DNA from: Elusimicrobiota bacterium
Lineage (GTDB): Bacteria > Elusimicrobiota > Elusimicrobia > UBA1565 > UBA9628
Assembly (NCBI GenBank): GCA_035606075.1
Contig: DATNGC010000060.1
Span: 1,450-65,449, forward strand
Length of the DNA stretch: 64,000 nucleotides
Direction: 5' to 3'
How positions within the stretch are numbered: position 1 is the stretch's first letter; each line of letters opens with the position of its first letter. The notes under the pieces are model-generated. The model did not search any database. It saw only the letters and a program-made list of their open reading frames with translations, and was not told the origin of the DNA. Position numbers and translations under genes: made by a program. Of the stretch, positions 33,425 to 62,403 are shown one piece after another.

Positions 33425-33454
33425 CCGGCGATTCTACAAGTTAGAGGCCGTCGC

Positions 33455-34887: not shown

Positions 34888-34906
34888 CGACGTCCAGGAG
34901 GACGCG

Positions 34907-35107
34907 ATGAAGATCATGCTGGCCGCGGCGATCGCCGCGGCGCTGTCGGGCTGCGCCGGCGTCGTGCGCGAGGATCAGGTGCCGGTTCGTGAGCTGAAGA
35001 ACGGGAGCGCGATCGTGCTGACGATCGTGGAGGATCCCGTGACGCGCGTGCGCTGCTTCATCGCCTATCCGGGCATGACGTGCCTGCAGCCGGAGCCGGC
35101 CAAGTGA
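34907..35107 (+). CDS. Small lipoprotein, hypothetical
   Basis: MKIMLAAAIAAALSGCAG has a lipobox (LSGC). Confidence 0.45.
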   Translation: MKIMLAAAIAAALSGCAGVVREDQVPVRELKNGSAIVLTIVEDPVTRVRCFIAYPGMTCLQPEPAK

Positions 35108-35304
35108 CGCGCGAGATGCTCGAGGCGCTCGCGATCGTCAACGGCCTGCAGCTGCTGCTGGCCGCGTTCCTGGTGTGGTTCCTCGAGCTCACGCCCGAGG
35201 CGCTCGCGTCGGGCAAGGCGATCGCCGACGCGCTGCTGGGCGCGCGCGGCGCGACGTCCAGGACGTCCGGTAATTCGTGGAGGGGGGAGCCCTATGACGG
35301 TTAA
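35104..35304 (+). CDS. Small membrane protein, hypothetical
   Basis: GTG at 35104 overlaps the upstream stop (GTGA). One hydrophobic helix, LQLLLAAFLVWFL. Confidence 0.35.
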   Translation: MTREMLEALAIVNGLQLLLAAFLVWFLELTPEALASGKAIADALLGARGATSRTSGNSWRGEPYDG

Positions 35305-35464
35305 TGCTCAGCCGAAGAAAACGACGAAGCGCGTCGGCCGCCGTTGGAAGACGCGGACCAAGGAGACGGCGTCGTGCGCCGACGGGAACGTGAGCTACGC
35401 CTGCAGGACCGGCAAGCACTCGATGGGCTGCTCGAGCCTCAGCTGCGGCTGCTGGTGTCACTGA
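35294..35464 (+). CDS. Possible 56-aa basic, Cys-rich peptide
   Basis: Not in the track (under 60 aa). My reading is MTVNAQPKKTTKRVGRRWKTRTKETASCADGNVSYACRTGKHSMGCSSLSCGCWCH then TGA at 35462-35464. It has 7 Cys in the last 29 residues. Confidence 0.25.
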   Translation: MTVNAQPKKTTKRVGRRWKTRTKETASCADGNVSYACRTGKHSMGCSSLSCGCWCH

Positions 35465-35473
35465 ACTGCCCAC

Positions 35474-35501
35474 TTGAAATAGCCTGGGTGTTTGATTGAA
35501 T
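35474..35501 (+). promoter_or_regulatory. Sigma70-like promoter candidate P1 of element B
   Basis: cacTTGAAAtagcctgggtgtttgaTTGAAT. The -35 box and spacer start (cttgaaatagc) are identical to P3 at 44155-44165. Confidence 0.35.
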
Positions 35502-35939: not shown

Positions 35940-37109
35940 ATGGCGCAAAAGAAGAAGACGCCTCCCGTGACGCCGCCGCCGGCGGCCGAGGACGTGCCCG
36001 TGCTCGATCCGGATCCCGCGGCCGATGACCTCGAGGCCGACAAGCTCGCCGAGTTTCAATCGAACTTCGGCGGCAAGAACTACCGCATCCGCGTCGAGAA
36101 GTTCGACAAGGAAGAGAACGACTGGGAGATCATCGACCGATTCCCGCTCGACGGCTTCGATCCGATCACGTCGCTCAAGGGCCGCGGCAAGGGGCGCTAT
36201 CGCCTGACGCTGCTCAACGAGAAGGGCAAGTACGTCGAGGGCGGCCGCGAGGAGATCCGCATGGCGGGCCCGCTCGAGGGCGCGCCGGCGGCCGCCGCGG
36301 CGGCGCCGGCGGCCGCGGCGCCGGCCGAGGCGGATCCGCTCAATCATCCCCTCGTCATAAGCGTGCTCGCGATGATGGAGAAGTCGAACACGCAGACGCT
36401 CGAGATGATGAAGGCGCTCGCCTCGAGGCCGGAGCCGGCCAGGTCCTCGAGCTCCGAGGTCCTGGATCTCTTCAAGCAGGTGCGCGGCCTGGCGCCCGAA
36501 GATCCGATGAAGGAGCTCAGCAAGACGATCATGCTGCGCCTGCTCGAGCGCGGCCTTGAGGGCGACGGCGGCGGGGGCGGTGGAGACGGCGGCGGCTTCC
36601 TCAAGGAGCTGCGCGACGGCCTGCTCGCCGCGAAGGAGATGGGGATCCTCGGCGGCCGCCGGCTGCCGGCCGCGGATCCCGCGCCGGCGGCCGCCGCGGA
36701 GCCGGCCGCGCCCCTGCGCGTAAACCTGCAAACCGTGACGGCCGCGCCGCCGCCACCGCCGCCGGCCAAGGAGGCCCAACCCGTGAACGATCCGATCCTC
36801 GAGGGCCTGCGCCCTTACGCGCAGATCTTCCGCCAGCACGCCGAGAACAACGCCGACGTGACCGAGACCGCGAACTACCTCGTCGACGAGCTCTACGCGA
36901 TCGCCTGCCCGCTGATCCGCCGGCACAACACGCTCGCGAAGTTCGCCTCCGACGACGCGATCGTGGAGCAGATCGTGAACCGCGCCAAGGATTCCGCGCA
37001 GCTCGAGGCGGTCTTCGCCGCGGCGCCGGAGCTCGCGCCGCATCGCGACTGGTGCTCGAAGGTCGTCGCGAAGGCGATCGAGATCCTCAATAACCCGGGG
37101 AACGAATGA
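35940..37109 (+). CDS. Hypothetical protein with Ala/Pro/Gly low-complexity linkers
   Basis: ATG at 35940 (MAQKKKTPPV), 389 aa. It has a globular N-domain (NYRIRVEKFDKEENDWEIIDRFPLDGFD), GGGGGGDGGG and poly-Ala/Pro linkers, and a helical C-domain. Confidence 0.5.
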   Translation: MAQKKKTPPVTPPPAAEDVPVLDPDPAADDLEADKLAEFQSNFGGKNYRIRVEKFDKEENDWEIIDRFPLDGFDPITSLKGRGKGRYRLTLLNEKGKYVEGGREEIRMAGPLEGAPAAAAAAPAAAAPAEADPLNHPLVISVLAMMEKSNTQTLEMMKALASRPEPARSSSSEVLDLFKQVRGLAPEDPMKELSKTIMLRLLERGLEGDGGGGGGDGGGFLKELRDGLLAAKEMGILGGRRLPAADPAPAAAAEPAAPLRVNLQTVTAAPPPPPPAKEAQPVNDPILEGLRPYAQIFRQHAENNADVTETANYLVDELYAIACPLIRRHNTLAKFASDDAIVEQIVNRAKDSAQLEAVFAAAPELAPHRDWCSKVVAKAIEILNNPGNE

Positions 37110-37309
37110 ACGACCAGTTCACGATCGACCTGTACGACGGCAAGAAGAAGAAGCGCCTGATCATGGATCCGGCGGATCCCGTGAGCATGGGCAAGTATTT
37201 TCAGATGATGATGGCGCCTACGTGGACGCGCATCGTGTTTAGCCGGCCGCGGCCGAAGAAGCTGCCGGCGCCGGCGAAGGGCGTCGTCCGATCGTTCCTC
37301 GAGGGCTGA
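37106..37309 (+). CDS. Hypothetical small protein
   Basis: 67 aa, with ATGA overlaps on both sides. Confidence 0.4.
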   Translation: MNDQFTIDLYDGKKKKRLIMDPADPVSMGKYFQMMMAPTWTRIVFSRPRPKKLPAPAKGVVRSFLEG

Positions 37310-37830
37310 TGCCTTACAACATCTCGGGCCTGCAGCCGGGCGACAACGGGATCACGGAGACGGTCAACGCCATGGTCACCGCGGTGAAGTGGTCGCTGCA
37401 GCACTACGACCTGCGCGCGCGCGCCGAGCTGCTGATCGCGAGCTGCCAGGAGCGCGACGAGCTCTGCGAGGTCCGCTCGATCTTCAAGTGGGTGCTCGCG
37501 CATTTTCGCTACGTCCGGGATCCGCGCTTCCTCGAGATGTTCAAGAGCCCCGAGATCGTCGACCAGGAGATCAGCGCGCGCGGGCAGTTCCAGGGCGATT
37601 GCGACGACGTCTCCGGATATCTCGCCGCGCTGCTTCTGTCGATCGGCTATCCGGTGAAGTTCGTCGTGATCAACGTGGTCGGCCAGGGCGACGACTTCCG
37701 GCACATCTATATGAAGGTGTACCTGCCGCGCTCGAAGGGCTGGATGGCGCTCGAGGCGACCGCGCGCCTGCAGCCGGCGGGCTGGGAAGCGCCCAATGGC
37801 GGGCGCGTTCGCGAATATCCGGTTTTATGA
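37309..37830 (+). CDS. Transglutaminase-like cysteine protease fold protein
   Basis: GDCDDVSGYLAALLLSIGYP, then FRHIYMKVY, then WMALEAT. This is the Cys / His / acidic order and spacing of the transglutaminase-core family. Confidence 0.6.
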   Translation: MPYNISGLQPGDNGITETVNAMVTAVKWSLQHYDLRARAELLIASCQERDELCEVRSIFKWVLAHFRYVRDPRFLEMFKSPEIVDQEISARGQFQGDCDDVSGYLAALLLSIGYPVKFVVINVVGQGDDFRHIYMKVYLPRSKGWMALEATARLQPAGWEAPNGGRVREYPVL

Positions 37831-37976: not shown

Positions 37977-39881
37977 GTGCTCTACGGACTCGACTCGGCT
38001 GCAGCGCGCGCGGAGATCTTCGATCCGACCGGACTCGGCGCGACCGTTCCCCACGCGGCGAACATCCGGACGACGACCGGCGGCGGCTTCGGCGTGCAGG
38101 CGGTCGGCGGCGGCGGCGCTCCCGGCGACTCGAGCGGATCTCCGGCAGCGGGCTCGGTCGGCTCGAGCTTCCGGCCGGTCGGCCGCAACACCGCGATCTA
38201 CACGACGACCGTGAAGGGCCGCGTCTTCGCGCGCAATCGCTTCCAGCCGACGGCGCAGGGCCCGCGCGTCACCGAGGGCTTCGGGCTCTCCGGCCTGGGT
38301 GCCACGGTGCCCCACGCCGCGAACATCCGCACGAGCCAGCACGGCGGCTTCGGCGTGGCGGCGATCGGCGGCGGCGGCGCCGCGGGCGACGCCGGCGGAT
38401 CTCCCGCGGCGGGATCCAGCGGCTCGGCCTTCCGGACGGTCGGCCGCAACACGGCCGTCTTCAACTCTAAAGGGGAAAAGCGCACGTTCGCCGGCAACCA
38501 TTATTCGCCGTCCGCGCAGGGCTCGCGCGCGATCCCGCAGTTCGGCGGCGCCGGCGGCGGCTTCGGCCTGTCCGGCGATCGCGCGGATCTCGCCCCGAGC
38601 GACGGCGTCGGCCTCGCCGGCTTCTTCGGCTGGCTCGGCAGCCGGCTCACGCCTCCCGGCGGCAAGATCCGCCGCGTGCAGCCGTTCGTGGAGCTCGTCT
38701 CGCCGGTCTACCGCCGCCGGCGCGCGAGCCCGCCGCCGCCCGCGGTGCCCGACGTCCCGCCCGGCGGGCCCGGGATCCGGCCGACCTCGAACACGATCGG
38801 CGGGCCGATCCCCGGAGGCCTCAGCGGCGACCGCGCGGATCTCGCGCCGAGCGACGGCACGGGCCTCTCCGGCGGCATCCTCGGCTGGATCAGCCAGCGT
38901 TTCATCCCGCCCGGCGGAAAGCTCAACCGGATCACGCCGATCCCGGCGAGCTGGCGCGCGATCGTTCCCAACGCGATCAAGACGCCGCTCCGTTATTACG
39001 GCGCGGCCGTGCAATCGACGTTCTTCCCGATGCTCAGCGGCCCGCAGCAGCGCCGCATGTTCGGCCTGTCTCCGTCCGAGTCGGGTGTGTTCGAGAAGTG
39101 GCAGCAGATCATGCTGCCGATCGACGCGACGATCGTGACGCTCGGCATGACGAGCTACGCGACGGGCATCGGCCCGTTCGCGTCGACGGTGACGAAGGTC
39201 CCGTACACGAGCCTGGCGCCGGTGACCTTCACGCCCGGGCAATCCGCCTCTCTTATCGCCGGCGACTTCGGGACGACGACCGGCCAGGCCGCGGCGCTCA
39301 CGGCGCCGGCGAACCTCGTCGTCTCCGCGGCGCCGGCGACCTCTCCCGGGATCTTCACCGCGGCGCTGCCCTCGACCATGATGACGCCCATGCAGGCGTC
39401 CGCGGCGCTTACCGCCGGCGACTTCGGCGCGACGGCCGGCACGAACGCGGTCCTCGCCGGCGTGGCCACGACGCCGGCGCAGGCGGCCGCGAACATCGCC
39501 CAGGGCGGCTCCGGCGCCGGCGCGCCCGGCTTCCTGGCGAAGCTCGGCGACCTGGCGCTGGCCGGCGGCAAGTTCGTCGGCACGACCGCCGTCACGACCG
39601 CCGCGAGCCTGGCCCTGCAGCGCGCCATGATGCCCGGAGGCGGGCCGCAGGATCAGCCCGTGGGCCAGGGCGGCGTCCCGGTCTACGCGGCCAGCGGCGG
39701 CCCCCAGGGGCAGCAGATCGTGCCCATGGGCGGCGGCAGCGCGGGCGGCGGCGGCGACGCCGGCGCGCAGCCGGAGCTCGCCGGCGTCGGCCTGCCGGTC
39801 ATGCTGGCGGCCGGCGCGATCGGCGTCGGAGCTCTCGTCATGCTCAAGCGCCGGCGCCGCGCCAAGCGGGGCCCGCGATGA
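37977..39881 (+). CDS. Gly-rich repeat protein with C-terminal transmembrane anchor (virion membrane or vertex protein candidate)
   Basis: GTG start; the true start is uncertain. Two tandem repeat pairs: GLGATVPHAANIRT..GGGFGV.A.GGGGA.GD..GSPAAGS x2 and GLSGDRADLAPSDG.GL.G..GW x2. The C-terminus is GLPVMLAAGAIGVGALVMLKRRRRAKRGPR. Confidence 0.55.
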   Translation: MLYGLDSAAARAEIFDPTGLGATVPHAANIRTTTGGGFGVQAVGGGGAPGDSSGSPAAGSVGSSFRPVGRNTAIYTTTVKGRVFARNRFQPTAQGPRVTEGFGLSGLGATVPHAANIRTSQHGGFGVAAIGGGGAAGDAGGSPAAGSSGSAFRTVGRNTAVFNSKGEKRTFAGNHYSPSAQGSRAIPQFGGAGGGFGLSGDRADLAPSDGVGLAGFFGWLGSRLTPPGGKIRRVQPFVELVSPVYRRRRASPPPPAVPDVPPGGPGIRPTSNTIGGPIPGGLSGDRADLAPSDGTGLSGGILGWISQRFIPPGGKLNRITPIPASWRAIVPNAIKTPLRYYGAAVQSTFFPMLSGPQQRRMFGLSPSESGVFEKWQQIMLPIDATIVTLGMTSYATGIGPFASTVTKVPYTSLAPVTFTPGQSASLIAGDFGTTTGQAAALTAPANLVVSAAPATSPGIFTAALPSTMMTPMQASAALTAGDFGATAGTNAVLAGVATTPAQAAANIAQGGSGAGAPGFLAKLGDLALAGGKFVGTTAVTTAASLALQRAMMPGGGPQDQPVGQGGVPVYAASGGPQGQQIVPMGGGSAGGGGDAGAQPELAGVGLPVMLAAGAIGVGALVMLKRRRRAKRGPR

Positions 39882-40903
39882 GGCTCATGGTCTCGCTCGC
39901 CGGCCGGCCTCGAGCTCCGCGCGGCCTCTCCGGCTTCGGCCTCGGCGACGCCGTCGCCGACCTCACGGCTCAGCTCAACGCCACGAACGACCAGATCACC
40001 GTGCTCAATAATCGGATGGTTTACCTTCAGTCCGAATACAACAAGAGCCACTACGGCGGGCAAAGCCCGGCGCAGATGCAGGTCTTTTACGATCAGGTCA
40101 CGAACCAGCTGATCCCGCTGCAGGCGAAGGCGACCTCGCTCGCCAACCAGATCACCGCGATCCAGCAGAAGGCGCAAAGCGACGCGCAGGCGGCCGCCGA
40201 CAAGGCCGCGGTCGTCGCCGCCACGCCGCCCACCGCGGCGGCGACCGCTCAGGCGCTGCGCGACTCCGTGAGCCAGCAGCAGAGCCTGGTCGAGATCGCG
40301 ATGGGCGCGAAGTACGACTACGGCCGCGGCTCGAGCAAGCGCACGGGCTTCTACCAGAGCGGCGGCCTGGCCGACGCTCCGGCGACGCCGGCGGCCGCGG
40401 CGCGCAGCTTCGATCTCACGTCCTACCTGGTTCCGAACAAAGAGACCAGCGATATCCGCTCGATCCCGAATTGGGAGCTCACCGGCCTGCGGCCGGCGCT
40501 CGGAGGAAACATGCAGCGCATTCTCGATATGCACCGGCCGGGCCTGGGCTTCGACGTCTTCGGCGCGATCGAGCAGGGCGCCAAGGCCGGCTACGCGAAG
40601 TACGCGGCCTCGCCGGCGGCCGCCGGCGGGAGCTCGCTGCCCGCGGTGAACATTCCGAACCCTTTCGCCGGGATCCTGCCCGACTGGCTCGCGAAGGCGC
40701 AGCTGCCGGCCTCGGTCCGCGATATCGGCGGCGGCGTGATCAGCTCCGTCACCAAGGCCGCGACCGCGCCGGCGCCCTCGAGCGCGGTCGCGCAGACGAC
40801 GGTGAGGACCGCGCCGGCGCGCGCCTCGAGCGGGACGAACTGGCTGGTCGTCGGCGGCGGCGCCGCGATCGGCGGCTACATCCTTTGGAGAGCTCTCAGG
40901 TAG
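39878..40903 (+). CDS. Coiled-coil protein with C-terminal transmembrane anchor
   Basis: ATG at 39878 overlaps the upstream stop. It has a helical Gln/Ala-rich N-terminus. The C-terminus is NWLVVGGGAAIGGYILWRALR. Confidence 0.5.
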   Translation: MRLMVSLAGRPRAPRGLSGFGLGDAVADLTAQLNATNDQITVLNNRMVYLQSEYNKSHYGGQSPAQMQVFYDQVTNQLIPLQAKATSLANQITAIQQKAQSDAQAAADKAAVVAATPPTAAATAQALRDSVSQQQSLVEIAMGAKYDYGRGSSKRTGFYQSGGLADAPATPAAAARSFDLTSYLVPNKETSDIRSIPNWELTGLRPALGGNMQRILDMHRPGLGFDVFGAIEQGAKAGYAKYAASPAAAGGSSLPAVNIPNPFAGILPDWLAKAQLPASVRDIGGGVISSVTKAATAPAPSSAVAQTTVRTAPARASSGTNWLVVGGGAAIGGYILWRALR

Positions 40904-40907
40904 ATCC

Positions 40908-41582
40908 ATGATCGACTACAGCGACCAGATCACGCAGGCTCAGTTCGCCGTCGAGGACAAGATCGGCAAGGTCATGTCCTCCGGCGCGCAGATCCTCGCG
41001 ATCAAGCAGCGCGCGTCGAACTTCCTCAGCACGAGCAACAAAACGGTCAACGACCAGGCCGCGGCGATCGTCGCCAAGTGCAACGGCCTGATCTCGAACC
41101 TCAACCAGATCCAGGGCGACGCCGCGACGCTCGGCCAGAAGGCGAACGCGATGCTCGCGCAGATCCAGAGCGACCCGACCTGGCAGGCGATCCAGAACAG
41201 CCCGAGCTTCTTCGATTACGCCGGCTTCGCGGTCAAGGCCGTGGCGAACAACAACATCGGCCAGGCCACCTCGCTCGCGCAGCAGCTCTCCGGCCTGGCC
41301 TCGCGCGCGGACGCTCACCTGCAGCAGGTCGACGAGCTCAGCGGCGACGAGTCGAACATGGAGGACTACGCGCAGGGCAAGGGCTTCGCCGCGACCGTCG
41401 CCTCGCTCGGCGGCTCGGTCTCGGGCGCCGTCACCAGCTACACCGGCATGATCAAGTACGGCGCGATCGCCGTCGGCCTGTTCTTCGTTTGGGATCTCGC
41501 GAAGCCATTCGTCGCCGCGCGCCAGGCCGTGCACCGCAACCCGCGCCGCCGGATCCGCCGCTACTCGAGGAGGCGCCGGTGA
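40908..41582 (+). CDS. Helical protein with C-terminal transmembrane anchor and Arg-rich tail
   Basis: The C-terminus is KYGAIAVGLFFVWDLAKPFVAARQAVHRNPRRRIRRYSRRRR. Confidence 0.5.
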   Translation: MIDYSDQITQAQFAVEDKIGKVMSSGAQILAIKQRASNFLSTSNKTVNDQAAAIVAKCNGLISNLNQIQGDAATLGQKANAMLAQIQSDPTWQAIQNSPSFFDYAGFAVKAVANNNIGQATSLAQQLSGLASRADAHLQQVDELSGDESNMEDYAQGKGFAATVASLGGSVSGAVTSYTGMIKYGAIAVGLFFVWDLAKPFVAARQAVHRNPRRRIRRYSRRRR

Positions 41583-41893
41583 AGAAGACCGCGGCGCTCA
41601 CCCGAGCCGTCAGACGCTACGAGAAATTCCATGCCAAAGCCCCGAGCAAGGTGGGTCTCGTCAACATCCCTCATCCGAAGGCTGTTGTCTTTTTGGGAGC
41701 CGGCGTCGCCATCGAATACAAATCCGACAAGCGAGTGCTCTCGCTCGGCGACAAGCCCTCGATGGCTCGCGGCAAAACGCGCCTGTACCGCCATCGTTTC
41801 GGCGCGGGCGTTCGAGTTTATACGGATCCCGCGGGCTCGACGCTCTTCATAACGGGCGGAAGATTCCGAGTGACCGATTGGATGCGCGACTAA
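41579..41893 (+). CDS. Hypothetical small basic protein
   Basis: GTG at 41579 overlaps the upstream stop (GTGA). 104 aa. Confidence 0.4.
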   Translation: MKKTAALTRAVRRYEKFHAKAPSKVGLVNIPHPKAVVFLGAGVAIEYKSDKRVLSLGDKPSMARGKTRLYRHRFGAGVRVYTDPAGSTLFITGGRFRVTDWMRD

Positions 41894-41903
41894 AGGAGAA
41901 ACT

Positions 41904-42350
41904 ATGAAAAGCAACAGGCCGTTCTCGTGGCTCGAGCAGATGCTGGTCGTGATGGTCCTCACCGTGATGATGATGGCGATCGCCCCGCTCGCCAAGGCGA
42001 CGACCTGCGCGACGGGCGCCGGGACCTGCGTCTTCGAGATCGGAGTCTCGACGCCGGCCGCGACGTTCGTCCTCCTCACGACCGGGCAGGGAACCCTGAA
42101 CAACCTCGTGATCTCCTCGAGGACCGCGGCCGCCGGCGACTTCTGCGTGGCGTTCGACTCGGCCAGCACCTCCGGGCTCACGATCGAGGGCGACGGCACC
42201 TCCGTCGCCCCGCGGATCATGGCGACGAGCGTCGTCGCGACGAACACCGTGACGCCGCAGCCGGCCAACGCTCCGGCGGTCCCTTTCCTCAACGGGATCG
42301 CGGTCGGCTGCTCGGCCGCCCGGCGCGCGACGGTGATCCTCAACAAGTAG
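41904..42350 (+). CDS. Membrane-anchored or secreted beta-rich protein
   Basis: A strong SD (aaggag) lies 6 nt upstream. The N-terminal hydrophobic segment is MLVVMVLTVMMMAIAPLAKA. The body is Thr/Ala/Val-rich. Confidence 0.5.
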   Translation: MKSNRPFSWLEQMLVVMVLTVMMMAIAPLAKATTCATGAGTCVFEIGVSTPAATFVLLTTGQGTLNNLVISSRTAAAGDFCVAFDSASTSGLTIEGDGTSVAPRIMATSVVATNTVTPQPANAPAVPFLNGIAVGCSAARRATVILNK

Positions 42351-42359
42351 GAGAGCTCT

Positions 42360-43226
42360 ATGCCTCTGGTGCCTGAAGTCAACCCGGTCGGCAGCAAACG
42401 ATCTCGCAGCGGGGCGAGAAGGAAGGGCCACATGAAGAAGAGAAGGAAGGCGTCCGCCGCGCAGCTGCGCGCCCTCGCGAGAGGTCGCGCGAAGCAGGCT
42501 GCTCGGCGGGCCAGAAAGAACGCGCCTTCCCGCCCCAGGCGTCCGTCGCGCAGGCGGCGGGTCCTGGCGGCGAGAAGCAGCCGTGCCGCCGTGATCCGCA
42601 AGCGAAGGCGCTCTCGGCGCCTCACGCCCAATCCGTTCCTCGGAGGTCTCGCCGTTATGGGCAATCCCAAAAAGCGCCGTTCGTCTCGCCGTTCTCACCG
42701 CCGTCACCATCGCCGCAGCTCTCGCTCGTCGATCTTCCGCAACCCGATCGGCGGCAGCGTCGCGGCCGTCATGGGGCCGGCCAAGGAGATGATCTCGAAG
42801 CAGTTCCTGGTCGAGGCCTCGAGCCTGGCCCTCGGCTTCGTGCTCCCCGGCATCGTCACGAGCAAGTTCGTGCCGGCGTCGTACAGGAACACGGCCGCGA
42901 AGGGCTACGCGGTCAAGGTCGCCGTGATCGCGGGCCTCGCCGGCGCGACGTCGCTTTGGAACAAGCGCGTCTCGAAGGCGATCCTGATGGGCGGGGGCGT
43001 GTCGCTCGTCCTCGACATCTACACGGACTTCGTCGCGCCGATGCTCGGCGGCGTGCTGGGCGCGGCGTCCGCGCCGGCCGCGCTGCCGGCGCCGGCCGGA
43101 GGCACCGCGACGTACTACGGCGATCGCGGCGTCGGGACGTTCTACGGCGACAACGGCCTGGGCGCCTACGAGGGCGCCTCGATCGGCTCGGCGTTCGGAG
43201 GCGCCGGCGACAACGCCTACGCCTGA
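42360..43226 (+). CDS. Protein with a protamine-like Arg/Lys-rich N-terminal region and hydrophobic C-terminal half
   Basis: By my count, 47 Arg/Lys in the first 129 residues. Hydrophobic segments follow: LALGFVLPGIV, VAVIAGLAGATSLW, ILMGGGVSLVLDIY. SD aggagag lies upstream. Confidence 0.55.
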   Translation: MPLVPEVNPVGSKRSRSGARRKGHMKKRRKASAAQLRALARGRAKQAARRARKNAPSRPRRPSRRRRVLAARSSRAAVIRKRRRSRRLTPNPFLGGLAVMGNPKKRRSSRRSHRRHHRRSSRSSIFRNPIGGSVAAVMGPAKEMISKQFLVEASSLALGFVLPGIVTSKFVPASYRNTAAKGYAVKVAVIAGLAGATSLWNKRVSKAILMGGGVSLVLDIYTDFVAPMLGGVLGAASAPAALPAPAGGTATYYGDRGVGTFYGDNGLGAYEGASIGSAFGGAGDNAYA

Positions 43227-43356: not shown

Positions 43357-44013
43357 ATGAACGCGCACATCTCGCCGGCGATGCAGAACTACCTGACTCC
43401 GCTCAAGAATCAGGCGGGCACCGAGATCGAGGAGGCCGTCGACCAGCCTCTCTACCACCTGCAGGCGTACGCGACCGCCGGCAGCACGCAGTTCACGTTC
43501 TTCAACACCGCGGCCGGCGGCTACTCGGTCACGAACATGGACGCGCAGAGCGTCCTGTCGAAGGGCAAGCGCTTCGCGATCTTCGGCATCGGGATCGGCT
43601 ACATCGGCGGCCAGGCGATCGTCCAGGACACGGCGACGACCGTGCTGAACTCGTACCTGAACGACGCGCAGAAGGTCCTCGAGGGCGTGGCGTGGGCCGA
43701 GCTCAACATCCTCGACAAGAACTACCTGCGCGAGGCGCCGCTGACCCGCCTGCCCGGCGGCGTCGGCCTCAACGTCGGCGGCGCGTCGTTCCAGCGCACG
43801 CAGACGTCGGCCGCGGACGGCACGCGGCAGATCTCCTACGGCAGCAACGGCTTGCCGATGCTGTCGTGCATGCGCAAGCTGCGCGTGCCGATCCCCCTGC
43901 CCGAGCAGACGAAGTTCGCGGTCGTCGTGAACTTCCCGACCGCGGTCACCGTGACCACGGCCGGCACGCTCGCCGTGTGGCTCGACGGCGTGCTGCTGCG
44001 CGCCGTGCAGTAA
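43357..44013 (+). CDS. Capsid-like beta-rich protein (single jelly-roll candidate)
   Basis: 218 aa with SD aaggag. It has an alternating beta pattern (QFTFFNTAAGGYSVTNM, KRFAIFGIGIGYIGG, AWAELNILD, KFAVVVNFPTAVTVTTAGTLAVWLDGVLL). It lies directly upstream of the duplicated-half protein. Confidence 0.45.
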   Translation: MNAHISPAMQNYLTPLKNQAGTEIEEAVDQPLYHLQAYATAGSTQFTFFNTAAGGYSVTNMDAQSVLSKGKRFAIFGIGIGYIGGQAIVQDTATTVLNSYLNDAQKVLEGVAWAELNILDKNYLREAPLTRLPGGVGLNVGGASFQRTQTSAADGTRQISYGSNGLPMLSCMRKLRVPIPLPEQTKFAVVVNFPTAVTVTTAGTLAVWLDGVLLRAVQ

Positions 44014-44155: not shown

Positions 44156-44183
44156 TTGAAATAGCTCGGGGGATGCTTAGCAT
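44156..44183 (+). promoter_or_regulatory. Sigma70-like promoter candidate P3 of element B
   Basis: TTGAAA, 16 nt, TAGCAT. The upstream ggatttatgaagcgatttg resembles gattttatgaaggccatttg of P4. Confidence 0.45.
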
Positions 44184-44220
44184 GAGAAGGTAGGTTCCCA
44201 AAGGAACAGGAGACACGACC

Positions 44221-45165
44221 ATGGCCGACTTGACCGCGCAGCAGATCCGGGAGATGCAGATTAAGCGCTACATCCTTGGCGTCGACCCGATCCTGCCCGA
44301 CGTCGCCAAGCTCGAGAGCCGCCCGTTCATCTACGCGATGGACACCGACACGCAGAACGGCGTGCAGCTGGCCTCCGGCCAGGCCGCCAACCTGCAGATC
44401 CAGATCGACGACGGCTCTTACTTCCTGGTCGAGCAGATCCACATCATCTCGGGCCTCAAGACGGTCTCGATGGACAAGGCCCTGGTGCAGATCACCGACA
44501 CCACGACGTCGCGCGCCTGGTCCGATCAGCCCGTGCCGCTGCGCGACATCGCCGGCCGCGGCGACGCGCCGAAGTACCTCTCCGACCCGAACCTGCTGCG
44601 GCCGACGTCGACGCTCAACGTGCAGATCACGAACAACACCGGCAGCTCGGCCGCGTTCTACGCCGCGCTGATCGGGCGCAAGATCATCGGCCTCTCCGAG
44701 GCGCAGGCGAATATCATGCTGCGCCGGCTGTGGTTCACCTACGTCATGAACCTGCCCAGCGGCCTCGGCGCCTCGGCCGTCGACACGCAGGCGCAGGTCA
44801 AGATCTACAACGAGAGCGACTTCATCCTGAAGAAGCTCTCCGCGCAGCAGATGATCTCCGCGTGGGCCGCGGCCTCCGGCGGCGCGCTGTCCGACGAGAT
44901 CATGGTCATGCTGCGCGACACGACCGCCGATCGCAATTTCATGAACCAGAAGCTGCCGCTGCGGCTGATCGCCGGCCAGTACGCCGGCGCCGTCACCTCG
45001 GTCGCGAACTCCTGGGCCGGCGGCAGCCCCGAGACGCTCAAGAAGCCCGCGCTGATCCGGCGCAATGGGATCCTCGCCGGCTTCTTCGACAACAAGTCCA
45101 CGACGGCCGTCACCGGCCCCGTGAACCTGACCTGCGAAGGGATTCGCGTGTTCGACCAGGCGTAA
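44221..45165 (+). CDS. Major capsid protein candidate with internal duplication (double jelly-roll-like)
   Basis: Residues about 34-165 and 180-314 align block by block. IQIDDGSYFLVEQI aligns with VKIYNESDFILKKL. ITDTTTSRAWSDQPVPLRDIAGRG aligns with LRDTTADRNFMNQKLPLRLIAGQY. LSDPNLLRPTSTLNVQITNN aligns with LKKPALIRRNGILAGFFDNK. It has its own promoter and SD. Confidence 0.55.
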   Translation: MADLTAQQIREMQIKRYILGVDPILPDVAKLESRPFIYAMDTDTQNGVQLASGQAANLQIQIDDGSYFLVEQIHIISGLKTVSMDKALVQITDTTTSRAWSDQPVPLRDIAGRGDAPKYLSDPNLLRPTSTLNVQITNNTGSSAAFYAALIGRKIIGLSEAQANIMLRRLWFTYVMNLPSGLGASAVDTQAQVKIYNESDFILKKLSAQQMISAWAAASGGALSDEIMVMLRDTTADRNFMNQKLPLRLIAGQYAGAVTSVANSWAGGSPETLKKPALIRRNGILAGFFDNKSTTAVTGPVNLTCEGIRVFDQA

Positions 45166-45175
45166 GAGGGAAACC

Positions 45176-45715
45176 ATGCCGCCGATCTCCAAGGCGTGCC
45201 TGAGCGACCAGGACAAGAAGGATCTCGTCGCGTTCTCCGAGAAGCACAAGATCTACCCGTACCGCTATCGCTTCAATAAGCTGATCAGCACCACGGCGTT
45301 CAACAAGACCGCCGCGGGCCCGATCCAGGGCGCCAACCCGGGGCTCGGCTCTTACTTCACGCTGAGCTTCACGCCCAAAGAGATCACGCCGATCATCTAC
45401 ATCGCGACGTCGTTCATCGTGCTGCCGAACACGTCGGTCGATATCTTCGCGCTCGTCGTCAGCTACAACAGCACGATCAGCTTCGCCGACAACGTGAACG
45501 CCGGCCTGCCCGACGACGAGGCCCAGGACACCTATCAGCTGCTGTCCAACGGCGGCGCGATCAACGACTTCCAGGTGTTCTACCCGGTGAACTGGTTCCT
45601 CGAGCGCGGCCGCACGATCTATATGCACGTCTACGCCGGGCCGACCGTCGTCGCCGCGGCGAGCTCGTACATCGTCGGGCACTTCATCCTGGGCACGCTG
45701 CCCACGGGGGCTTAA
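45176..45715 (+). CDS. Capsid-associated beta-rich protein (penton or minor capsid candidate)
   Basis: 179 aa with a beta-strand pattern (SYFTLSFTP, PIIYIATSFIVLP, DIFALVVSYNSTISF, TIYMHVYAG, YIVGHFILG). It starts 10 nt after the capsid candidate. Confidence 0.4.
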   Translation: MPPISKACLSDQDKKDLVAFSEKHKIYPYRYRFNKLISTTAFNKTAAGPIQGANPGLGSYFTLSFTPKEITPIIYIATSFIVLPNTSVDIFALVVSYNSTISFADNVNAGLPDDEAQDTYQLLSNGGAINDFQVFYPVNWFLERGRTIYMHVYAGPTVVAAASSYIVGHFILGTLPTGA

Positions 45716-48459: not shown

Positions 48460-49146
48460 ATGAAGAGCTCCGACCTGAAACGATTCGGCCCGCTCCTGGT
48501 CCTCATCGGTTACGTGCTTTACCGGGAGTTCACCTCGAGCGGCGACGGCTCCGATAATCCGTTCGGCATAAACACCGACGTCCTAGGAACGAGGACCATG
48601 AGCGTGATCCAAGATTTCAGCGACAAGCTCAGCCCGATCGCGAAGAAGGTCGAGAACGAGACCGGGATCTCGTCGCGCCTCGGCCTGGTCCAGGCGGCGC
48701 TCGAGTCGAGCTACGGATCCTCGAAGCTCTCGAGGCCGGACGCGCAGCTCACGATCCTGCCGGCCAACGTGACGGGGCCGGCGCTGAACATCTTCGGCTT
48801 AAAGTGCGGCAGCGCGTGGCTCAACGCGAAGAAGCCTTACGTGATGCTGCCGACGAAGGACTACTACGCGAAGGGCCAGAAGATGCCCAACGGCGCGATC
48901 GCGACCGTCGACAACCAGGCTCTCGTGTGGCCGGCGCCGTTTCGCGCCTATGGATCCTGGGAAGAGAGCTACCGCGATTGGGCGCGGCTGATGCAGATCC
49001 CGGTGTACGTCCAGGACGGAGCTCTCGCCGCGCTGCAGGCCGACGACCTCGAGAAGTTCGGCCAGGCGCTCGGGATCCACTACGCGCCGAACCAGAACTA
49101 CGCGAAGAGGATCTCCGATCGCGCCGGCGAGATGGGGCTGGCATGA
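48460..49146 (+). CDS. Peptidoglycan hydrolase, glucosaminidase (FlgJ/LytD-type) domain with N-terminal signal-anchor
   Basis: The N-terminal TM is FGPLLVLIGYVLY. The glucosaminidase pattern is LVQAALESSYGSSKL ... NIFGLKCG ... FRAYGSWEESYRDWARLM. Confidence 0.7.
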   Translation: MKSSDLKRFGPLLVLIGYVLYREFTSSGDGSDNPFGINTDVLGTRTMSVIQDFSDKLSPIAKKVENETGISSRLGLVQAALESSYGSSKLSRPDAQLTILPANVTGPALNIFGLKCGSAWLNAKKPYVMLPTKDYYAKGQKMPNGAIATVDNQALVWPAPFRAYGSWEESYRDWARLMQIPVYVQDGALAALQADDLEKFGQALGIHYAPNQNYAKRISDRAGEMGLA

Positions 49147-49647: not shown

Positions 49648-49655
49648 GGCCCGCC

Positions 49656-49976
49656 ATGAAGACCTTCCAGGATCTCGCCGCGGTGCAGCTCAAGGCCTCT
49701 CGAGGCAACTGGCGCAAGGCCGTGCTCGAGCTCCGCGGCGCCGCGCGCCTCGTCCATGACAAGGCCTGGCGCCGGCAGCTGCAGCGCGCGGCCGCGCAGA
49801 TCCTCCGCTGGCGCCTCGAGGCGCTGCGCTCGAGGCGGCTCAAGAACCCGCTGCCCAAGCGCGCGGCCGCGGTGATCCGCCGCGAGATCCTGCGCCACAT
49901 CGGCGACGGCCGGCCGCAGCGCGTCGCGCTCGAGCTCGCCTACAAGTACGCGCGCCGAAAGGGCCTGGTCGACTAG
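49656..49976 (+). CDS. Hypothetical basic helical protein
   Basis: ATG at 49656. 106 aa, Arg-rich. Confidence 0.35.
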   Translation: MKTFQDLAAVQLKASRGNWRKAVLELRGAARLVHDKAWRRQLQRAAAQILRWRLEALRSRRLKNPLPKRAAAVIRREILRHIGDGRPQRVALELAYKYARRKGLVD

Positions 49977-49979
49977 ACC

Positions 49980-50210
49980 ATGGCGGATCCGGAGCCGATC
50001 GAGGCCGAGCTGGTCGACGAACCCGCCCCGCGCCGGCGCGCGGCCGCGGAGCCGAAGAAAGAGGCGGCGCCGCTGCGCGTGGAGCTCGACGCCTGGCCGA
50101 AGCTGCTGCGCGCGCGCTGCGTGATCACGGAGCGGGGAAAACGTCGCGAACTCACGCTGGACGGCTCGCTCGTCGCGATTCTGCTCAACTACCTCAGCAC
50201 GCTGCGCTGA
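49980..50210 (+). CDS. Hypothetical small protein
   Basis: 76 aa. Confidence 0.35.
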   Translation: MADPEPIEAELVDEPAPRRRAAAEPKKEAAPLRVELDAWPKLLRARCVITERGKRRELTLDGSLVAILLNYLSTLR

Positions 50211-50262
50211 CGCCGGCGCCGCGGCCGTCCGACGGGCCAGATGACGATTTTATGAAGGCCAT

Positions 50263-50291
50263 TTGACAAAAAAACTACTAGGGTGTAGAAT
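50263..50291 (+). promoter_or_regulatory. Sigma70-like promoter candidate P4 of element B
   Basis: TTGACA, 17 nt, TAGAAT. It sits in a 190-nt gap that contains an A-tract. Confidence 0.55.
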
Positions 50292-50406
50292 CGGAGGCGT
50301 TGAATCAGATACGTGCCCTTGGCGGGGCAAACGTCGGAGACGTCCTCTCGCTTTTCGTGCCTCCTCGAGGCGCGCCCCGCCAGCTGTCAACGGCGGGGGC
50401 GCCTGA

Positions 50407-50787
50407 GTGACGGCGAGAATCCCCCAAGGCTTCAAGGCCAGCTGCAGCTGCTGCCGCCAGCGCGCCGCGCGCGCGACCGATTACTGCCCGGGCTGCCGGC
50501 GCGTCGTGTGCGCCGCCTGCGCCGCGCTGGACGGCCTCACGGCTCACCGGCCGCACGCTTTGACCGATCACGCCGGCTGGAAGGCCCACGGCGGCCGCCG
50601 GCCGGCGTCCTGGGGATCTCCGAAGGGGCGGGCTTCCGCGGTTAATGGAGCTCCGCGGCGGCCCGCCCCGGGGGCCGTGGTCGTGAGCTCCTGCAGCCTG
50701 CCGGGCGGCGTCAAGATCCTGCGGCCGGCGCTCGAGCACCTGATCCGCGCGCGGCTGCGCGCCGACGCGGTCGGAGGAACGCTGTGA
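50407..50787 (+). CDS. Cys-rich (zinc-ribbon-like) small protein
   Basis: CSCC..x10..CPGC..x4..CAAC near the N-terminus. 126 aa. Confidence 0.4.
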   Translation: MTARIPQGFKASCSCCRQRAARATDYCPGCRRVVCAACAALDGLTAHRPHALTDHAGWKAHGGRRPASWGSPKGRASAVNGAPRRPAPGAVVVSSCSLPGGVKILRPALEHLIRARLRADAVGGTL

Positions 50788-51095
50788 AGATCGCGATCAA
50801 GAGCCCCAGGATCTATCCGCGGCCGTTCGACGCGCCTCGAGCCGAGCCCGAGGGCCGCTGCTGCGTGGCGCTGAGCGACAACGAGGCCGTCGGCGCGATC
50901 GTCTTCGACCGCGGCCGCGGCTGCTTCACGATCGTCAACCCGGCGCAGGTCGCGGTCGTGTGCCTGACCGGCGCCGTGACGTTTCCCGGCCGGCTGATGA
51001 TCTCGTTTTGCCCTTACTGCGGCTTTCAATGGAACACGATCGCCGAGCAGAACGTGATCCTCACGCCACGGCCGCAGGAGAAGCCCCAATCATGA
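50784..51095 (+). CDS. Hypothetical small protein with C-terminal CPYC
   Basis: 103 aa, with ATGA overlap on both sides. Confidence 0.4.
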   Translation: MKIAIKSPRIYPRPFDAPRAEPEGRCCVALSDNEAVGAIVFDRGRGCFTIVNPAQVAVVCLTGAVTFPGRLMISFCPYCGFQWNTIAEQNVILTPRPQEKPQS

Positions 51096-51748
51096 ACGTC
51101 GCCACCGCGGCGGCGCCGGCGTCGATCGACGTCGTGAGCGCTTTCTGTTATAGCGCCGCCTGCAGGGGCGTCGATCGCGTGTGGAAGCGCGCGCTGCCGA
51201 CGTCCTCGGTCTACGCCTGCAGCAGCTGCGATCGCACGCGGGAGTTCTCGAGCGATCAGCCGGGATCCGCCGCGGGGGGGGGCAGCTCGAGCACCCCGGC
51301 GCCGGCGGCCGCGGCGGCGCCGGCCACGATTTCGCAAACGGTCAAATCGACCAGGAAGGAACGAACCATGCCCGATGAAACGAAGTTCAAGAGATCGCCG
51401 CTGCAGAGCGCGATCGTCGAAGCCGTGAAAGAGCAGCTCGTCGCCATCCGCGCCGAGATCGACGACCTCAAGAAGGATATCCGCGAAATCGGAAAGGGCG
51501 ACGGCGATCGCGACCTCGAGCGCAAGCTGGACGAGAAGCTCGAGCGCGAGATCCCGGAGCTCGTCACGCGCGCGGTCGTGCAGATGCTCGCGACGCCGGC
51601 CGGCGCCGTGCCGGCCAGGTCGAAGCGCGCCGCGGCCTCGAGCTCGGCCGAGGACGACGCCGGCGACGGCGATTGCGGCCACAAGAACAACCTGAAGAAG
51701 TGCGCGGGCTGCAGGGCCAAGCGCGCCGCGGCCGCCACGGAGAGCTGA
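51092..51748 (+). CDS. Hypothetical protein (Cys pairs at both ends, coiled-coil middle)
   Basis: ATG at 51092. It contains the G9 tract at 51274-51282, which codes AAGGGSS. An internal ATG at 51368 could be a second start. Confidence 0.4.
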   Translation: MNVATAAAPASIDVVSAFCYSAACRGVDRVWKRALPTSSVYACSSCDRTREFSSDQPGSAAGGGSSSTPAPAAAAAPATISQTVKSTRKERTMPDETKFKRSPLQSAIVEAVKEQLVAIRAEIDDLKKDIREIGKGDGDRDLERKLDEKLEREIPELVTRAVVQMLATPAGAVPARSKRAAASSSAEDDAGDGDCGHKNNLKKCAGCRAKRAAAATES

Positions 51749-51750
51749 CC

Positions 51751-51870
51751 ATGCCCGACCAACCTGCCGTCCCGATGGGCGCCGGCGCGAAGACCGCCGT
51801 CGGCGTCGTCATCGGCGTGATCGCGCTCGTGTTCCTCGGGATCCTGTTCACGACGCCGGTCGATCACTGA
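51751..51870 (+). CDS. Possible 39-aa membrane peptide
   Basis: MPDQPAVPMGAGAKTAVGVVIGVIALVFLGILFTTPVDH. Confidence 0.3.
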   Translation: MPDQPAVPMGAGAKTAVGVVIGVIALVFLGILFTTPVDH

Positions 51871-52106
51871 TGAACACCCCGCGCCAGATTTGGGAGACGC
51901 CGGAGCTCCTCGAGTACGTGACCGGAGAGGACGACGCGATGCTCGAGGCCGAATGCGCGCCGATCGGCGCGTGCTGGAAATCCGACTGTTGCGGCGCGAC
52001 CTCCGCGGACGTCCTCGTGGCGAAGGCGATGATCGGCCTCGCCGGCGAGCTCCTCAACGGGGGGGGGGGCGCTCATGAGCCACGCGAACGAGCGCGCCGC
52101 GGATAG
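51870..52106 (+). CDS. Hypothetical small acidic protein, contains the G11 tract near its 3' end
   Basis: 78 aa. G11 at 52059-52069 codes GGGG. Removing one G would fuse it to the 32-aa ORF 52075-52173. Confidence 0.35.
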   Translation: MNTPRQIWETPELLEYVTGEDDAMLEAECAPIGACWKSDCCGATSADVLVAKAMIGLAGELLNGGGGAHEPRERARRG

Positions 52107-52169
52107 ACTCGAGCTCGAGCGGCGCAAGCTGCAGCTGCCGCTGCCGATCGTCCTGAAGGAGCGCGCGCG

Positions 52170-52427
52170 ATGATGATGGCCGACGAGTTTCTGCAGGCCG
52201 ACGCGATCGCCGCGGCCGAGGTCGTCGCGCCCTGGTGGACGAGGACCGCGCTGCTGCCGGAGCTCCACGAATTTATTCCCCAGGGAATATTAGGCCCTGA
52301 CTGTCGCTGCGGATATTTGGACAAGGACGACCTCGAGGCGTGGAACGCCGACGGAGAGTACCTCTGGATCCACGAGCAGCTGTGGTGCGAGCGCGAGGAC
52401 GTAGACGCCGAGGAGCTCCCCCTGTGA
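52170..52427 (+). CDS. Hypothetical small acidic protein
   Basis: 85 aa. Confidence 0.4.
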   Translation: MMMADEFLQADAIAAAEVVAPWWTRTALLPELHEFIPQGILGPDCRCGYLDKDDLEAWNADGEYLWIHEQLWCEREDVDAEELPL

Positions 52428-52597
52428 CGAATCTCTTCGCCGCCCCGTTTTGCTTTTTCGTCGCGCTGCAGAATCTCCAATGGTTTCTCGAGAAGGGTCT
52501 ATCCCGTGATGCGTGGCTGGGTGTCGTCGGGATATTGATGGCGGGGATCAATCTCGGGATCGCGATCGGCCGCCTCGAGGAGCGCCCCCGTGGCTGA
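52424..52597 (+). CDS. Small membrane protein
   Basis: GTG at 52424 overlaps the upstream stop. Two hydrophobic segments. Confidence 0.35.
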   Translation: MTNLFAAPFCFFVALQNLQWFLEKGLSRDAWLGVVGILMAGINLGIAIGRLEERPRG

Positions 52598-52781
52598 GAA
52601 GATCGAGATCCCGTGCACGAACCCGGACTGTGCTCGATCGAAGCGCAGCTGCCGCCTCGAGCTCGAGCCGGTGGCGGGCGGCATGGTTGAGCTCACGGTG
52701 TTCGGCTGCTCAGGCGACGACGCGACGATTCGGATCCCGTGGTACGAGCTCGTCGAGCTACCCGGCAAGACGGCGCATTAA
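52590..52781 (+). CDS. Hypothetical small protein with CxxxxC and C-pair
   Basis: GTG start. 63 aa. Confidence 0.35.
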   Translation: MAEKIEIPCTNPDCARSKRSCRLELEPVAGGMVELTVFGCSGDDATIRIPWYELVELPGKTAH

Positions 52782-52790
52782 GGAGAAATC

Positions 52791-53027
52791 ATGCCCCACG
52801 ATAAGAACGGAATCGAGATCAAGCCCGGCGACGTGGTTCGCGTGCCGCCGGAGTCCTACATGCCCCACGAGAAGATCGGCGCGGTGCGCAGCGTCAACAA
52901 GGGATCCGACCTGTGCAATCTCTCTGTCGAGGTCATCGGCAAGCAGGCGCAGACCGAGCACTTCGAGAGCCTGCCGGCCGTGCAACTGATCACGGTCTCG
53001 GCGAAGGATTGCGAGAAGCTCGCCTAG
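52791..53027 (+). CDS. Hypothetical small protein
   Basis: 78 aa. An SD-like aaggag lies 8 nt upstream. Confidence 0.45.
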   Translation: MPHDKNGIEIKPGDVVRVPPESYMPHEKIGAVRSVNKGSDLCNLSVEVIGKQAQTEHFESLPAVQLITVSAKDCEKLA

Positions 53028-53097
53028 ATGAACGAACCCAAAGACGCCGGCGACGAGATCCGCGTCGCCGGCGTCTCGATGATCGAGGAGCGCCCCC

Positions 53098-53331
53098 GTG
53101 GCTAAGAGATCCTGCCGGCGCTGCGGCTGCACCGATGCTCGAGCTTGCCCCGACGGCTGCGCCTGGGCCGCTCGAGATCTCTGCACGGCCTGCGTGCCGG
53201 CGATCTACGTCGATTGGGTGTGGCAGCAATATCGCGCGTCGGCCGGCCGGCTCCTCGAGGAGCTCCGAACCTGGGACGAGATCTCCTGCGCGGCCGAGCA
53301 GCTCTACGCCGAGCGCCGAGGCTTCGCGTGA
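53098..53331 (+). CDS. Cys-rich small protein
   Basis: MAKRSCRRCGCTDARACPDGCAWAARDLCTAC has 8 Cys in the first 32 residues. Confidence 0.4.
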   Translation: MAKRSCRRCGCTDARACPDGCAWAARDLCTACVPAIYVDWVWQQYRASAGRLLEELRTWDEISCAAEQLYAERRGFA

Positions 53332-53567
53332 GCGAGATCCTCCGTTGCTGGAAATGCGGAAAACCGCTGACGGGCACGCTGTCGGGCTATACGGCACAGT
53401 GCTGCGGCGCGATCGCGTATTGGCATCGCGAGATCCGCGACCTGCACCTTCAATGGCGGGATCTCACCGACGTCCTGCTCGAGGCCGAGGGGCGCCGGCG
53501 ATCGCGTCACGTCATCGCGGCTATGATCCTCTCGGCGCTCGCCGGCGCGACGATCGCCCTGTGGGCT

Positions 53568-62392: not shown

Positions 62393-62403
62393 TCGTTACA
62401 CTC

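Follow-up and report, generated by a model that had tools for sequence, protein, structure and literature searches.

A probable double jelly-roll capsid protein with homologous halves in an Elusimicrobiota provirus, and its single-unit relatives

How did the double jelly-roll capsid protein arise? This protein is common to tectiviruses, adenoviruses, virophages, and giant viruses, and its origin is a long-standing question. A stretch of DNA from an Elusimicrobiota bacterium (assembly GCA_035606075.1, contig DATNGC010000060.1, positions 1,450 to 65,449; 64,000 nucleotides in all and referred to here as the window) bears on this question through a gene for a 314-residue protein, located at positions 44221–45165 of the + strand. 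The protein is probably a double jelly-roll-type shell protein of a temperate, tailless, and probably membrane-containing virus of ∼22 kb, and it would have come from the duplication of a single unit. In known double jelly-roll capsid proteins the two barrels share no sequence similarity, and the debate over their origin rests on the comparison of structures (PMC8812541, PMC6260650, PMC5894146). Two origins compete: that two viral genes for single jelly rolls were fused, and that a cellular protein, already doubled, was captured (PMC8812541, PMC6260650). The family of the window protein keeps a sequence signal.

The open reading frame (ORF) at 44221–45165 is a coding frame, with a GC content of 0.97 at third codon positions in surroundings of 65%–70% GC. 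Two domains were found in its product by hmmsearch with a model of the unit. The N-terminal unit, the predicted first jelly roll, spans residues 31–159 (44311–44697), and the C-terminal unit, the predicted second jelly roll, spans residues 167–314 (44719–45162). Compared with the N unit, the C unit carries two lineage-specific insertions, one of 7 residues (helix 209–217) and one of ∼16 residues in the F′G′ loop.

An earlier note on this DNA, made by reading the letters, had proposed that the two halves are homologous and align in three blocks with matching motif order. Formal repeat tests bear this out. A Smith–Waterman alignment of residues 1–170 with residues 171–314 has a score of 90, and none of 2000 shuffles scored as high (28.8 ± 5.0; z ∼12). 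For 33 homologs, an alignment of the N halves was compared with one of the C halves by hhalign, and the two matched over 117 columns with a probability of 96.4% (E = 1.1e-9), pairing residues 35–157 with 171–312. All three blocks are in register in the formal alignments. When the halves of 14 members are merged into one alignment, they run collinearly over their full length at 18%–26% identity, with five residues (F, D, P, N, and G) that never vary in either half of any member. The window protein's own halves are ∼26% identical.

In a split-scan test of self-similarity, the window protein has a z value of 12.8 and seven other family members have values of 0.8 to 7.7. Characterised double jelly-roll capsid proteins taken from GenBank records served as controls, and gave z values of −0.3 (PRD1 P3), 2.0 (PM2 P2), 2.8 (Bam35 ORF18), 0.2 (FLiP major capsid protein), and −0.4 (STIV B345). 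Because these five proteins stay between −0.4 and 2.8, the half-to-half signal of the window protein is unusual. Thus, the internal homology is real and uncommon among double jelly-roll capsid proteins, and the remark in the earlier note that such retained similarity is rare agrees both with the controls and with the literature (PMC8812541).

The fold of the protein was predicted with AlphaFold2 from the family alignment (predicted local distance difference test score [pLDDT] 89.2; predicted TM-score 0.87). The model has an N-terminal helix followed by two beta-sandwich halves, each predicted to have seven clear strands, a broken F strand, and a short helix after that strand. In the N unit, strands at residues 33–41, 55–61, 67–77, and 88–93 precede the broken F strand and its helix, and strands at 118–126, 131–137, and 146–155 follow. 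The helices after F and F′ (residues 107–111 and 247–250) correspond to a feature of double jelly-roll capsid proteins (PMC8812541). When the model was compared with the PDB by Foldseek, the top ranks were held by P3 of PRD1 and PR772, Vp54 of PBCV-1, and the coat protein of STIV (B345), with E values of 8e-8 to 4e-6, a probability of 1.00, and TM-scores of 0.40–0.49. These matches of the predicted model cover the whole chain and include the relative orientation of the barrels. Among the predicted viral structures of BFVD, the best match is an unnamed protein of 256 residues, and the named full-length matches (TM-scores of 0.4–0.5) include the capsid proteins of the tectiviruses Wip1 and GC1. 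The predicted structure is thus a pair of jelly-roll beta sandwiches.

The unit also occurs on its own. A merged-unit profile was searched exhaustively against 1.84 billion representative proteins, and 1,346 proteins matched at E ≤ 1e-3, 267 of them at E ≤ 1e-10. We examined 183 proteins, composed of the best 150 of the 1,346 matches and the 34 homologs that a first protein search with the 314-residue protein had returned, with an overlap of one. Two unit domains are present in 129 of these proteins (236–402 residues), and one unit domain in the remaining 54. The single-unit proteins have a median length of 157 residues, and all except one begin with M. They are complete and diverse, each has its own N-terminal arm, and they carry the same motif series as the double family (IQxDSDF, ITDTGSGR/KxFFNQ, PFxLPxPR, TN, and GxKxY). 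A profile built from single-unit proteins only matches the N half of the window protein at 1.2e-27 and the C half at 1.5e-21, and hhalign relates the double family to the single family with a probability of 99.8% (E = 1.6e-27).

Single-unit genes were found at the corresponding position in related genomes. An hmmsearch over all + strand ORFs detected one unit gene per genome, which is a double in the window and in four metagenome contigs (L001–L004) and a single in three others (L090, L092, and L093). In the latter three genomes, the sole unit-matching gene encodes 152–195 residues. It stands at the end of a series formed by a protein-primed family B polymerase (seen in L092), a protein of ∼390 residues, a transglutaminase-core protein, and a protein of ∼220–270 residues. 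The single-unit gene therefore occupies the gene slot of the window double gene.

How old is the duplication in the window protein? In a clustering of 303 extracted units, the group of the window protein (G0) shows N-to-N and C-to-C orthology with groups G3 and G5 only; values are 0.33 between N halves, 0.28 between C halves, and 0.19 between N and C halves. When G0 is compared with the other double groups, all four half comparisons are equal, at 0.20–0.25. A bootstrapped neighbour-joining tree of 84 units (300 replicates) places the N halves of G0, G3, and G5 in one clade (0.80) and their C halves in another (0.76). No collinear nucleotide similarity was found between the halves of the window gene, where only short, out-of-register, GC-rich matches occur. 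The absence of collinear DNA similarity and the separate clades of N and C halves indicate that this duplication is old. The earlier note had offered a choice between a recent duplication and an intermediate between single- and double-jelly-roll lineages. The first option is contradicted by these two results and by the low identity of the halves, whereas the second is supported, as there are single-unit homologs in the same slot and younger duplications in other lineages.

These younger duplications are seen in five other double proteins, in each of which the nearest neighbour of one half is the other half of the same protein. The halves are sisters in the tree for P0160 (59% identity; bootstrap 1.00), P0063 (48%; 0.73), P0120 (46%; 0.96), P0156 (40%; 0.87), and P0118 (39%; 0.89). 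The halves of P0160 align without a gap (score 374), and their DNA is 68% identical over 278 collinear nucleotides. For P0063 the DNA identity is 68.6% over 318 collinear nucleotides, and its next neighbour after its own other half is a single-unit protein (P0173). Both genes lie in the same kind of module as the window gene. Sister halves in five proteins indicate repeated, independent duplications, unless gene conversion mimics this pattern, and the other lineages would have duplicated the unit later and separately.

The window gene resides in a provirus of ∼22 kb (about 32.7–54.76 kb), which is bounded by a 36-nucleotide exact attachment (att) repeat and integrated at a tRNA-Met gene. The tRNA gene was located by ARAGORN at 54724–54797 (− strand), and its 3′ 36 nucleotides (54724–54759) form one att copy. 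The second copy, 100% identical to the tRNA 3′ end by blastn, lies at 32695–32730 and marks the left boundary of the provirus. A tyrosine integrase gene (53568–54635, − strand; PF00589, 5.5e-27) stands beside the tRNA gene. An integrase in this position and a copy of the tRNA 3′ end at the opposite boundary identify the element as a tRNA-integrated temperate provirus. The 3′ end of the tRNA gene is repeated exactly at 22408–22450 as well, over 43 nucleotides, and within a tandem array of integrated elements the provirus takes the outer position. In the host flanks, glucokinase has its match in Acidobacteriota metagenome-assembled genomes at only 58% identity, so that the uncultured host is possibly Acidobacteriota-like.

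The + strand module at ∼35.5–49.65 kb of the window is syntenic with L001–L004, which are contigs of 21–24 kb with a protein-primed family B polymerase (PF03175) encoded on the left side and a glucosaminidase on the right side. In comparison with these free relatives, no protein-primed polymerase was found in the window provirus. The arms of the provirus (32731–35500 and 49650–53500) hold unrelated small ORFs, an uncharacterised 323-residue protein, and the integrase, whereas the free relatives have the polymerase at their left end. Thus, the integrated and the free forms join the same structural module to different modules for lifestyle and replication.

Upstream of the 314-residue gene lies a gene for a 218-residue partner (43357–44013, + strand), which on the basis of synteny, its AlphaFold2 model, and weak fold matches is a jelly-roll-like candidate for a penton or second capsid protein. 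In all contexts that were examined a partner gene lies close to the unit gene, and it is directly upstream in L001–L004, L090, L092, and L095. In L093, two small ORFs separate the unit gene from the partner match, which has 271 residues, and in L094 a 262-residue gene separates it from a match of 241 residues. A profile of the 218-residue family detects the gene upstream of the unit gene in L090, L092, L093, L094, and L095 (1.7e-30 to 8.7e-14), and by BLASTP the 218-residue protein of the window is 26%–31% identical to its counterparts in L090, L092, and L093. The partner is 70% identical to its L001 counterpart, compared with 57% for the 314-residue protein. No protein of the module is better conserved: across 34 homologs, which reach down to 48% identity, 33 of its residues do not vary. 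Its model is a beta sandwich (pLDDT 81) whose best fold matches, all weak, are to the capsid proteins of SPV1 (E = 3e-3), PCV2, SH1, and HHIV-2. No profile relation to the unit was found by hhalign that would make the partner a diverged copy of it. It is plausible that the partner supplies the five-fold vertices as a penton or has a second role in the shell.

The earlier note had also described a promoter-like element and a Shine–Dalgarno sequence of the capsid gene's own, and both are present as consensus matches only. A sigma-70-like match (TTGAAA-16-TAGCAT; 44156–44183, + strand) agrees with 9 of 12 consensus positions, and one such match was found where 0.2 are expected in shuffles. The Shine–Dalgarno sequence AGGAGA (44208–44213, + strand), read directly from the DNA, lies 7 nucleotides 5′ of the ATG.

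Several points weigh against a double jelly-roll-type shell protein of duplicated origin. TM-scores to solved capsid proteins are modest, at 0.45–0.50, and Foldseek also matches cellular DUF2961-type enzymes at E values of about 1e-5, below the capsid proteins. A packaging ATPase of the FtsK/HerA type is usual in double jelly-roll viruses. No such (A32-like) ATPase was found in the provirus by Walker A motif, Pfam, or PHROGs, and conserved Walker A proteins are likewise absent from the visible sequence of L001–L004 and L090–L093, with the left 4–5 kb of the free genomes out of view. FLiP and the Odin group also are without an ATPase of this type (PMC5894146). The role of the protein in the virion, its highest abundance, and its oligomeric state are what we infer, and the vertex role of the partner is a guess because its fold matches are weak (E ≥ 3e-3). 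For the history of the family, sister halves could also come from gene conversion after one old duplication, and the total number of duplications is uncertain because identities between the deep groups (20%–25%) are near saturation.

The enzyme matches raise the question of whether the gene encodes a cellular-type double jelly-roll protein that acts on or binds carbohydrates (DUF2961-like) and is carried by a mobile element, rather than a capsid protein. Foldseek matches DUF2961 (4kq7), alphaFFase1 (7v1v), and an arabinofuranosidase (8ic8) with E values of 5e-6 to 9e-6 and TM-scores of 0.45–0.50. However, viral capsid proteins outrank these enzymes, and the protein has no Pfam match to DUF2961 or to any family. 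Moreover, its known relatives all reside on virus-like contigs of 1–24 kb or in the window provirus, in one structural module with lysis genes, and the free relatives also encode the protein-primed polymerase. We regard a cellular-type protein as highly improbable. It also seems quite unlikely that the 314-residue protein is a minor virion component, such as a vertex or turret protein with two domains (compare STIV A223), with the 218-residue partner as the true major capsid protein. The partner is the more conserved of the two proteins (70% versus 57% identity to L001), and its model is jelly-roll-like with the SPV1 capsid as its best, weak, match, as such an exchange of roles would have it. 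Nevertheless, the full-length fold matches of the 314-residue protein are to the major capsid proteins of PRD1, PBCV-1, and STIV and not to penton proteins, and its gene has the strongest expression signals of the module. Furthermore, a repeated change from a six-copy unit to a three-copy double is expected for hexameric capsomers.

A history with only one ancient duplication, in which all double proteins come from one double ancestor, is unlikely as well. Sister halves would then be the product of gene conversion, and single-unit proteins would have arisen by secondary loss of one half. G0, G3, and G5 do share one old duplication, the deep groups are too dissimilar to one another for independence to be proven, and tandem repeats inside one gene are a substrate for conversion. 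However, sister halves are found in five separate proteins (bootstrap 0.73–1.00), and in P0160 and P0063 they are collinear over 278–318 nucleotides at only ∼68% DNA identity, which fits aged duplications better than recent conversion tracts. In addition, the next closest unit to those of P0063 is a single-unit protein, and the single-unit proteins are numerous, diverse, and full length, with N-terminal arms of their own.

The duplication history that we propose is as follows. Tandem duplication and fusion of a single jelly-roll capsid gene of ∼150 residues would have generated the two homologous halves, and the unduplicated, ancestor-type gene would persist at the same genomic position in related viruses. 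The change thus would have run from single to double. Three double proteins may form a pseudo-hexameric capsomer that replaces six single-unit copies, a rationale that we draw from knowledge of PRD1-type and SPV1-type capsids, and the partner may provide the five-fold vertices or act as a second shell component. In the window lineage, the duplication would be old and common to two other subfamilies, with a C half that has diverged more and has gained its two insertions. At least five other lineages of the superfamily would have duplicated the unit independently and more recently.

Among known systems, the major capsid proteins of the Tectiviridae (PRD1 P3, Bam35, Wip1, and GC1) are the best structural matches of the 314-residue protein. 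Like P3, the predicted structure combines two jelly rolls of the vertical type in a single chain, and it has an N-terminal helix and the F–G helices. The free relatives are contigs of the size of a linear genome with a protein-primed family B polymerase, and the window module has many small membrane proteins and a lysin, as does the tectivirus PRD1. In contrast, there is no sequence similarity between the tectivirus proteins and the 314-residue protein, even by profile, and the window halves keep a similarity that those of P3 and the Bam35 protein do not. The genome is ∼22 kb rather than ∼15 kb, no P9-like packaging ATPase was found in it, and the window copy, inserted by a tyrosine integrase, is without a polymerase. 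Membership in the Tectiviridae was rejected on the basis of genome size (∼22 kb), the lack of a protein-primed polymerase in the window, the failure to find an ATPase, and the absence of similarity to GenBank phages.

FLiP (Finnlakeviridae) and the Odin group are similar in having a double jelly-roll capsid protein of ∼310 residues and no recognisable packaging ATPase (PMC5894146, PMC8812541). FLiP differs by its 9-kb circular single-stranded DNA genome, by the lack of self-similarity in its capsid protein (z = 0.2), and by having no sequence relation that we could find. The single-unit relatives with their upstream partner resemble the two-gene or one-gene arrangement of vertical single jelly rolls in the Helvetiavirae (P23-77 VP16/VP17 and SH1 VP4/VP7) and Portogloboviridae (SPV1 VP4). 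They have a single unit of ∼150 residues and a second jelly-roll-like gene upstream, adjacent in two of three single-unit genomes, and the partner's best, weak, fold matches are to the capsid proteins of SPV1, SH1, and HHIV-2. However, there is no sequence relation to the solved structures, and the unit and the partner are unrelated to each other in sequence. Unlike the pair of different genes in the Helvetiavirae, the unit itself is doubled and fused in the window. Cellular DUF2961 proteins share the overall fold of the 314-residue protein as judged by Foldseek, but differ by the absence of a Pfam match and by their metabolic rather than viral context. The two DUF2961 domains are reported to be structurally more alike to each other than are those of viral capsid proteins (PMC8812541). 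Assignment of the protein to DUF2961 was rejected, as Pfam gives no match at E ≤ 1 and the context is a provirus. Tailless viruses of ANME-1 and a marine double-Greek-key element were also compared, and these are different entities.

The module contains several other conserved genes, all on the + strand. A 389-residue protein (35940–37109), which has no Pfam or PHROG match, is by tblastn 41% identical to a 386-residue protein of L001 and 32% identical to a 411-residue protein of L003. It is followed by a 173-residue transglutaminase-core-like protein (37309–37830) common to double-unit and single-unit genomes, whose homologs carry weak matches to PF01841 and which is 30%–38% identical by BLASTP to proteins of L090, L092, and L093. 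A block of Gly-rich, coiled-coil, Arg-rich, and membrane-anchored proteins (37977–43226) is syntenic with L001 and L003, has no library match, and holds candidate internal-membrane and DNA-associated virion proteins. The first of these, a Gly-rich protein of 634 residues (37977–39881), has a segment of ∼60 residues (GLGATVPHAANIRT...GSPAAGS...FRxVGRNTA) present twice, as is LSGDRADLAPSDGxGL, and its C terminus consists of a membrane anchor and then RRRRAKR. One of the two proteins encoded at 42360–43226 and 40908–41582 begins with ∼130 protamine-like, extremely Arg- and Lys-rich residues, after which come hydrophobic segments, and the other is a coiled coil that ends in a membrane anchor and a RRRIRRYSRRRR tail. 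These two proteins may compact DNA at an internal membrane, a role possibly relevant to the absence of a packaging ATPase.

Downstream from the capsid gene is a conserved 179-residue protein (45176–45715), which is syntenic in L001–L004 at 24%–54% identity and has no Pfam or PHROG match. No relation to the unit was found by hhalign that would make this neighbour a diverged copy of it. In L004, the family is represented by two tandem paralogs (10904–11437 and 11445–11948), an unfused duplication in the structural module. At 48460–49146 there is a glucosaminidase-type endolysin with an N-terminal membrane anchor (PF01832, 4.1e-14; PHROG endolysin families, best 3e-16).

Upstream of the provirus is a stretch of low GC content (55%–61%; 12200–32730). 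Between ∼22.4 and 32.7 kb, what appears to be another element (roughly 10.3 kb) has been inserted into this same site in tandem, and no att copy was found on the left side of the part at 12.2–22.4 kb. The stretch has two more tyrosine integrases (25882–27270 and 31616–32584, both − strand), two helix-turn-helix regulators, and defence-like cargo at 13079–14293, 19967–22327, 17622–18875, and 22614–24356 (all − strand). This cargo includes an AAA_14/DUF4143 ATPase that matches the PADLOC candidate system PDC-S01 (4e-54), an AAA_13 ATPase that matches PDC-S06 (1e-58), a Hypoth_Ymh and FG-GAP protein, and a proteasome-subunit-like protein with DUF6941. In the chromosomal flank, a protein with ankyrin repeats and a caspase domain (Peptidase_C14; 62374–63762, + strand) matches the PADLOC PDC-M72A and caspase models.

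Reference collections contain little that resembles these genes. None of the 34 homologs from the first protein search is given a name by any source. Pfam, PHROGs, and NCBIfam-type naming gave no match for the capsid gene, the 218-residue partner, the downstream gene, and most of the module, with the endolysin, the integrase, and the weak transglutaminase core of homologs as the sole exceptions; for the 314-residue protein, Pfam has none at E ≤ 1, DUF2961 included. Pfam and PHROGs likewise gave none for the single-unit proteins. When profiles of the double family, the single family, the unit, and the partner were run against PDB sequences, no meaningful match came up. Neither the double protein nor a single-unit protein had a tblastn match among 50,697 GenBank phages, and no relatives of the capsid gene were found among GTDB species representatives. 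In IMG/VR, alignment-derived patterns and two single-unit queries detected no relatives, and a degenerate DNA pattern for the QITDTGSG motif identified 28 loci, none of them genuine. No description of this virus assemblage was found in the literature, within a search that reached few subscription journals. It seems that the assemblage forms a sizeable set of bacterial viruses missed by current virus catalogues and profile libraries.

This appears to be the first case in which the possible origin of a double jelly-roll capsid protein can be followed at the level of sequence. The assemblage spans single-unit forms in the same slot, young doubles with halves as much as 59% identical, and old doubles such as that of the window, so that the transition is directly testable by phylogenetics, ancestral-state comparison, and structural work on singles versus doubles. 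Duplication and fusion inside viruses happens, apparently repeatedly. An independent origin of the window protein is possible because it has no sequence link to known members, because it descends at the sequence level from a single-unit family, and because duplications apparently were repeated. We tentatively entertain the idea that double jelly-roll capsid proteins are polyphyletic. A single vertical jelly-roll protein would have become a fused double at least six times in this assemblage, and the window protein would be convergent, owing its architecture to a duplication within viruses rather than to a PRD1/adenovirus-type or cellular DUF2961-like ancestor. If this is true, then a hallmark of a whole virus realm would be polyphyletic, and its living intermediates, from singles through young doubles to old doubles, would be at hand for reconstructing the transition.

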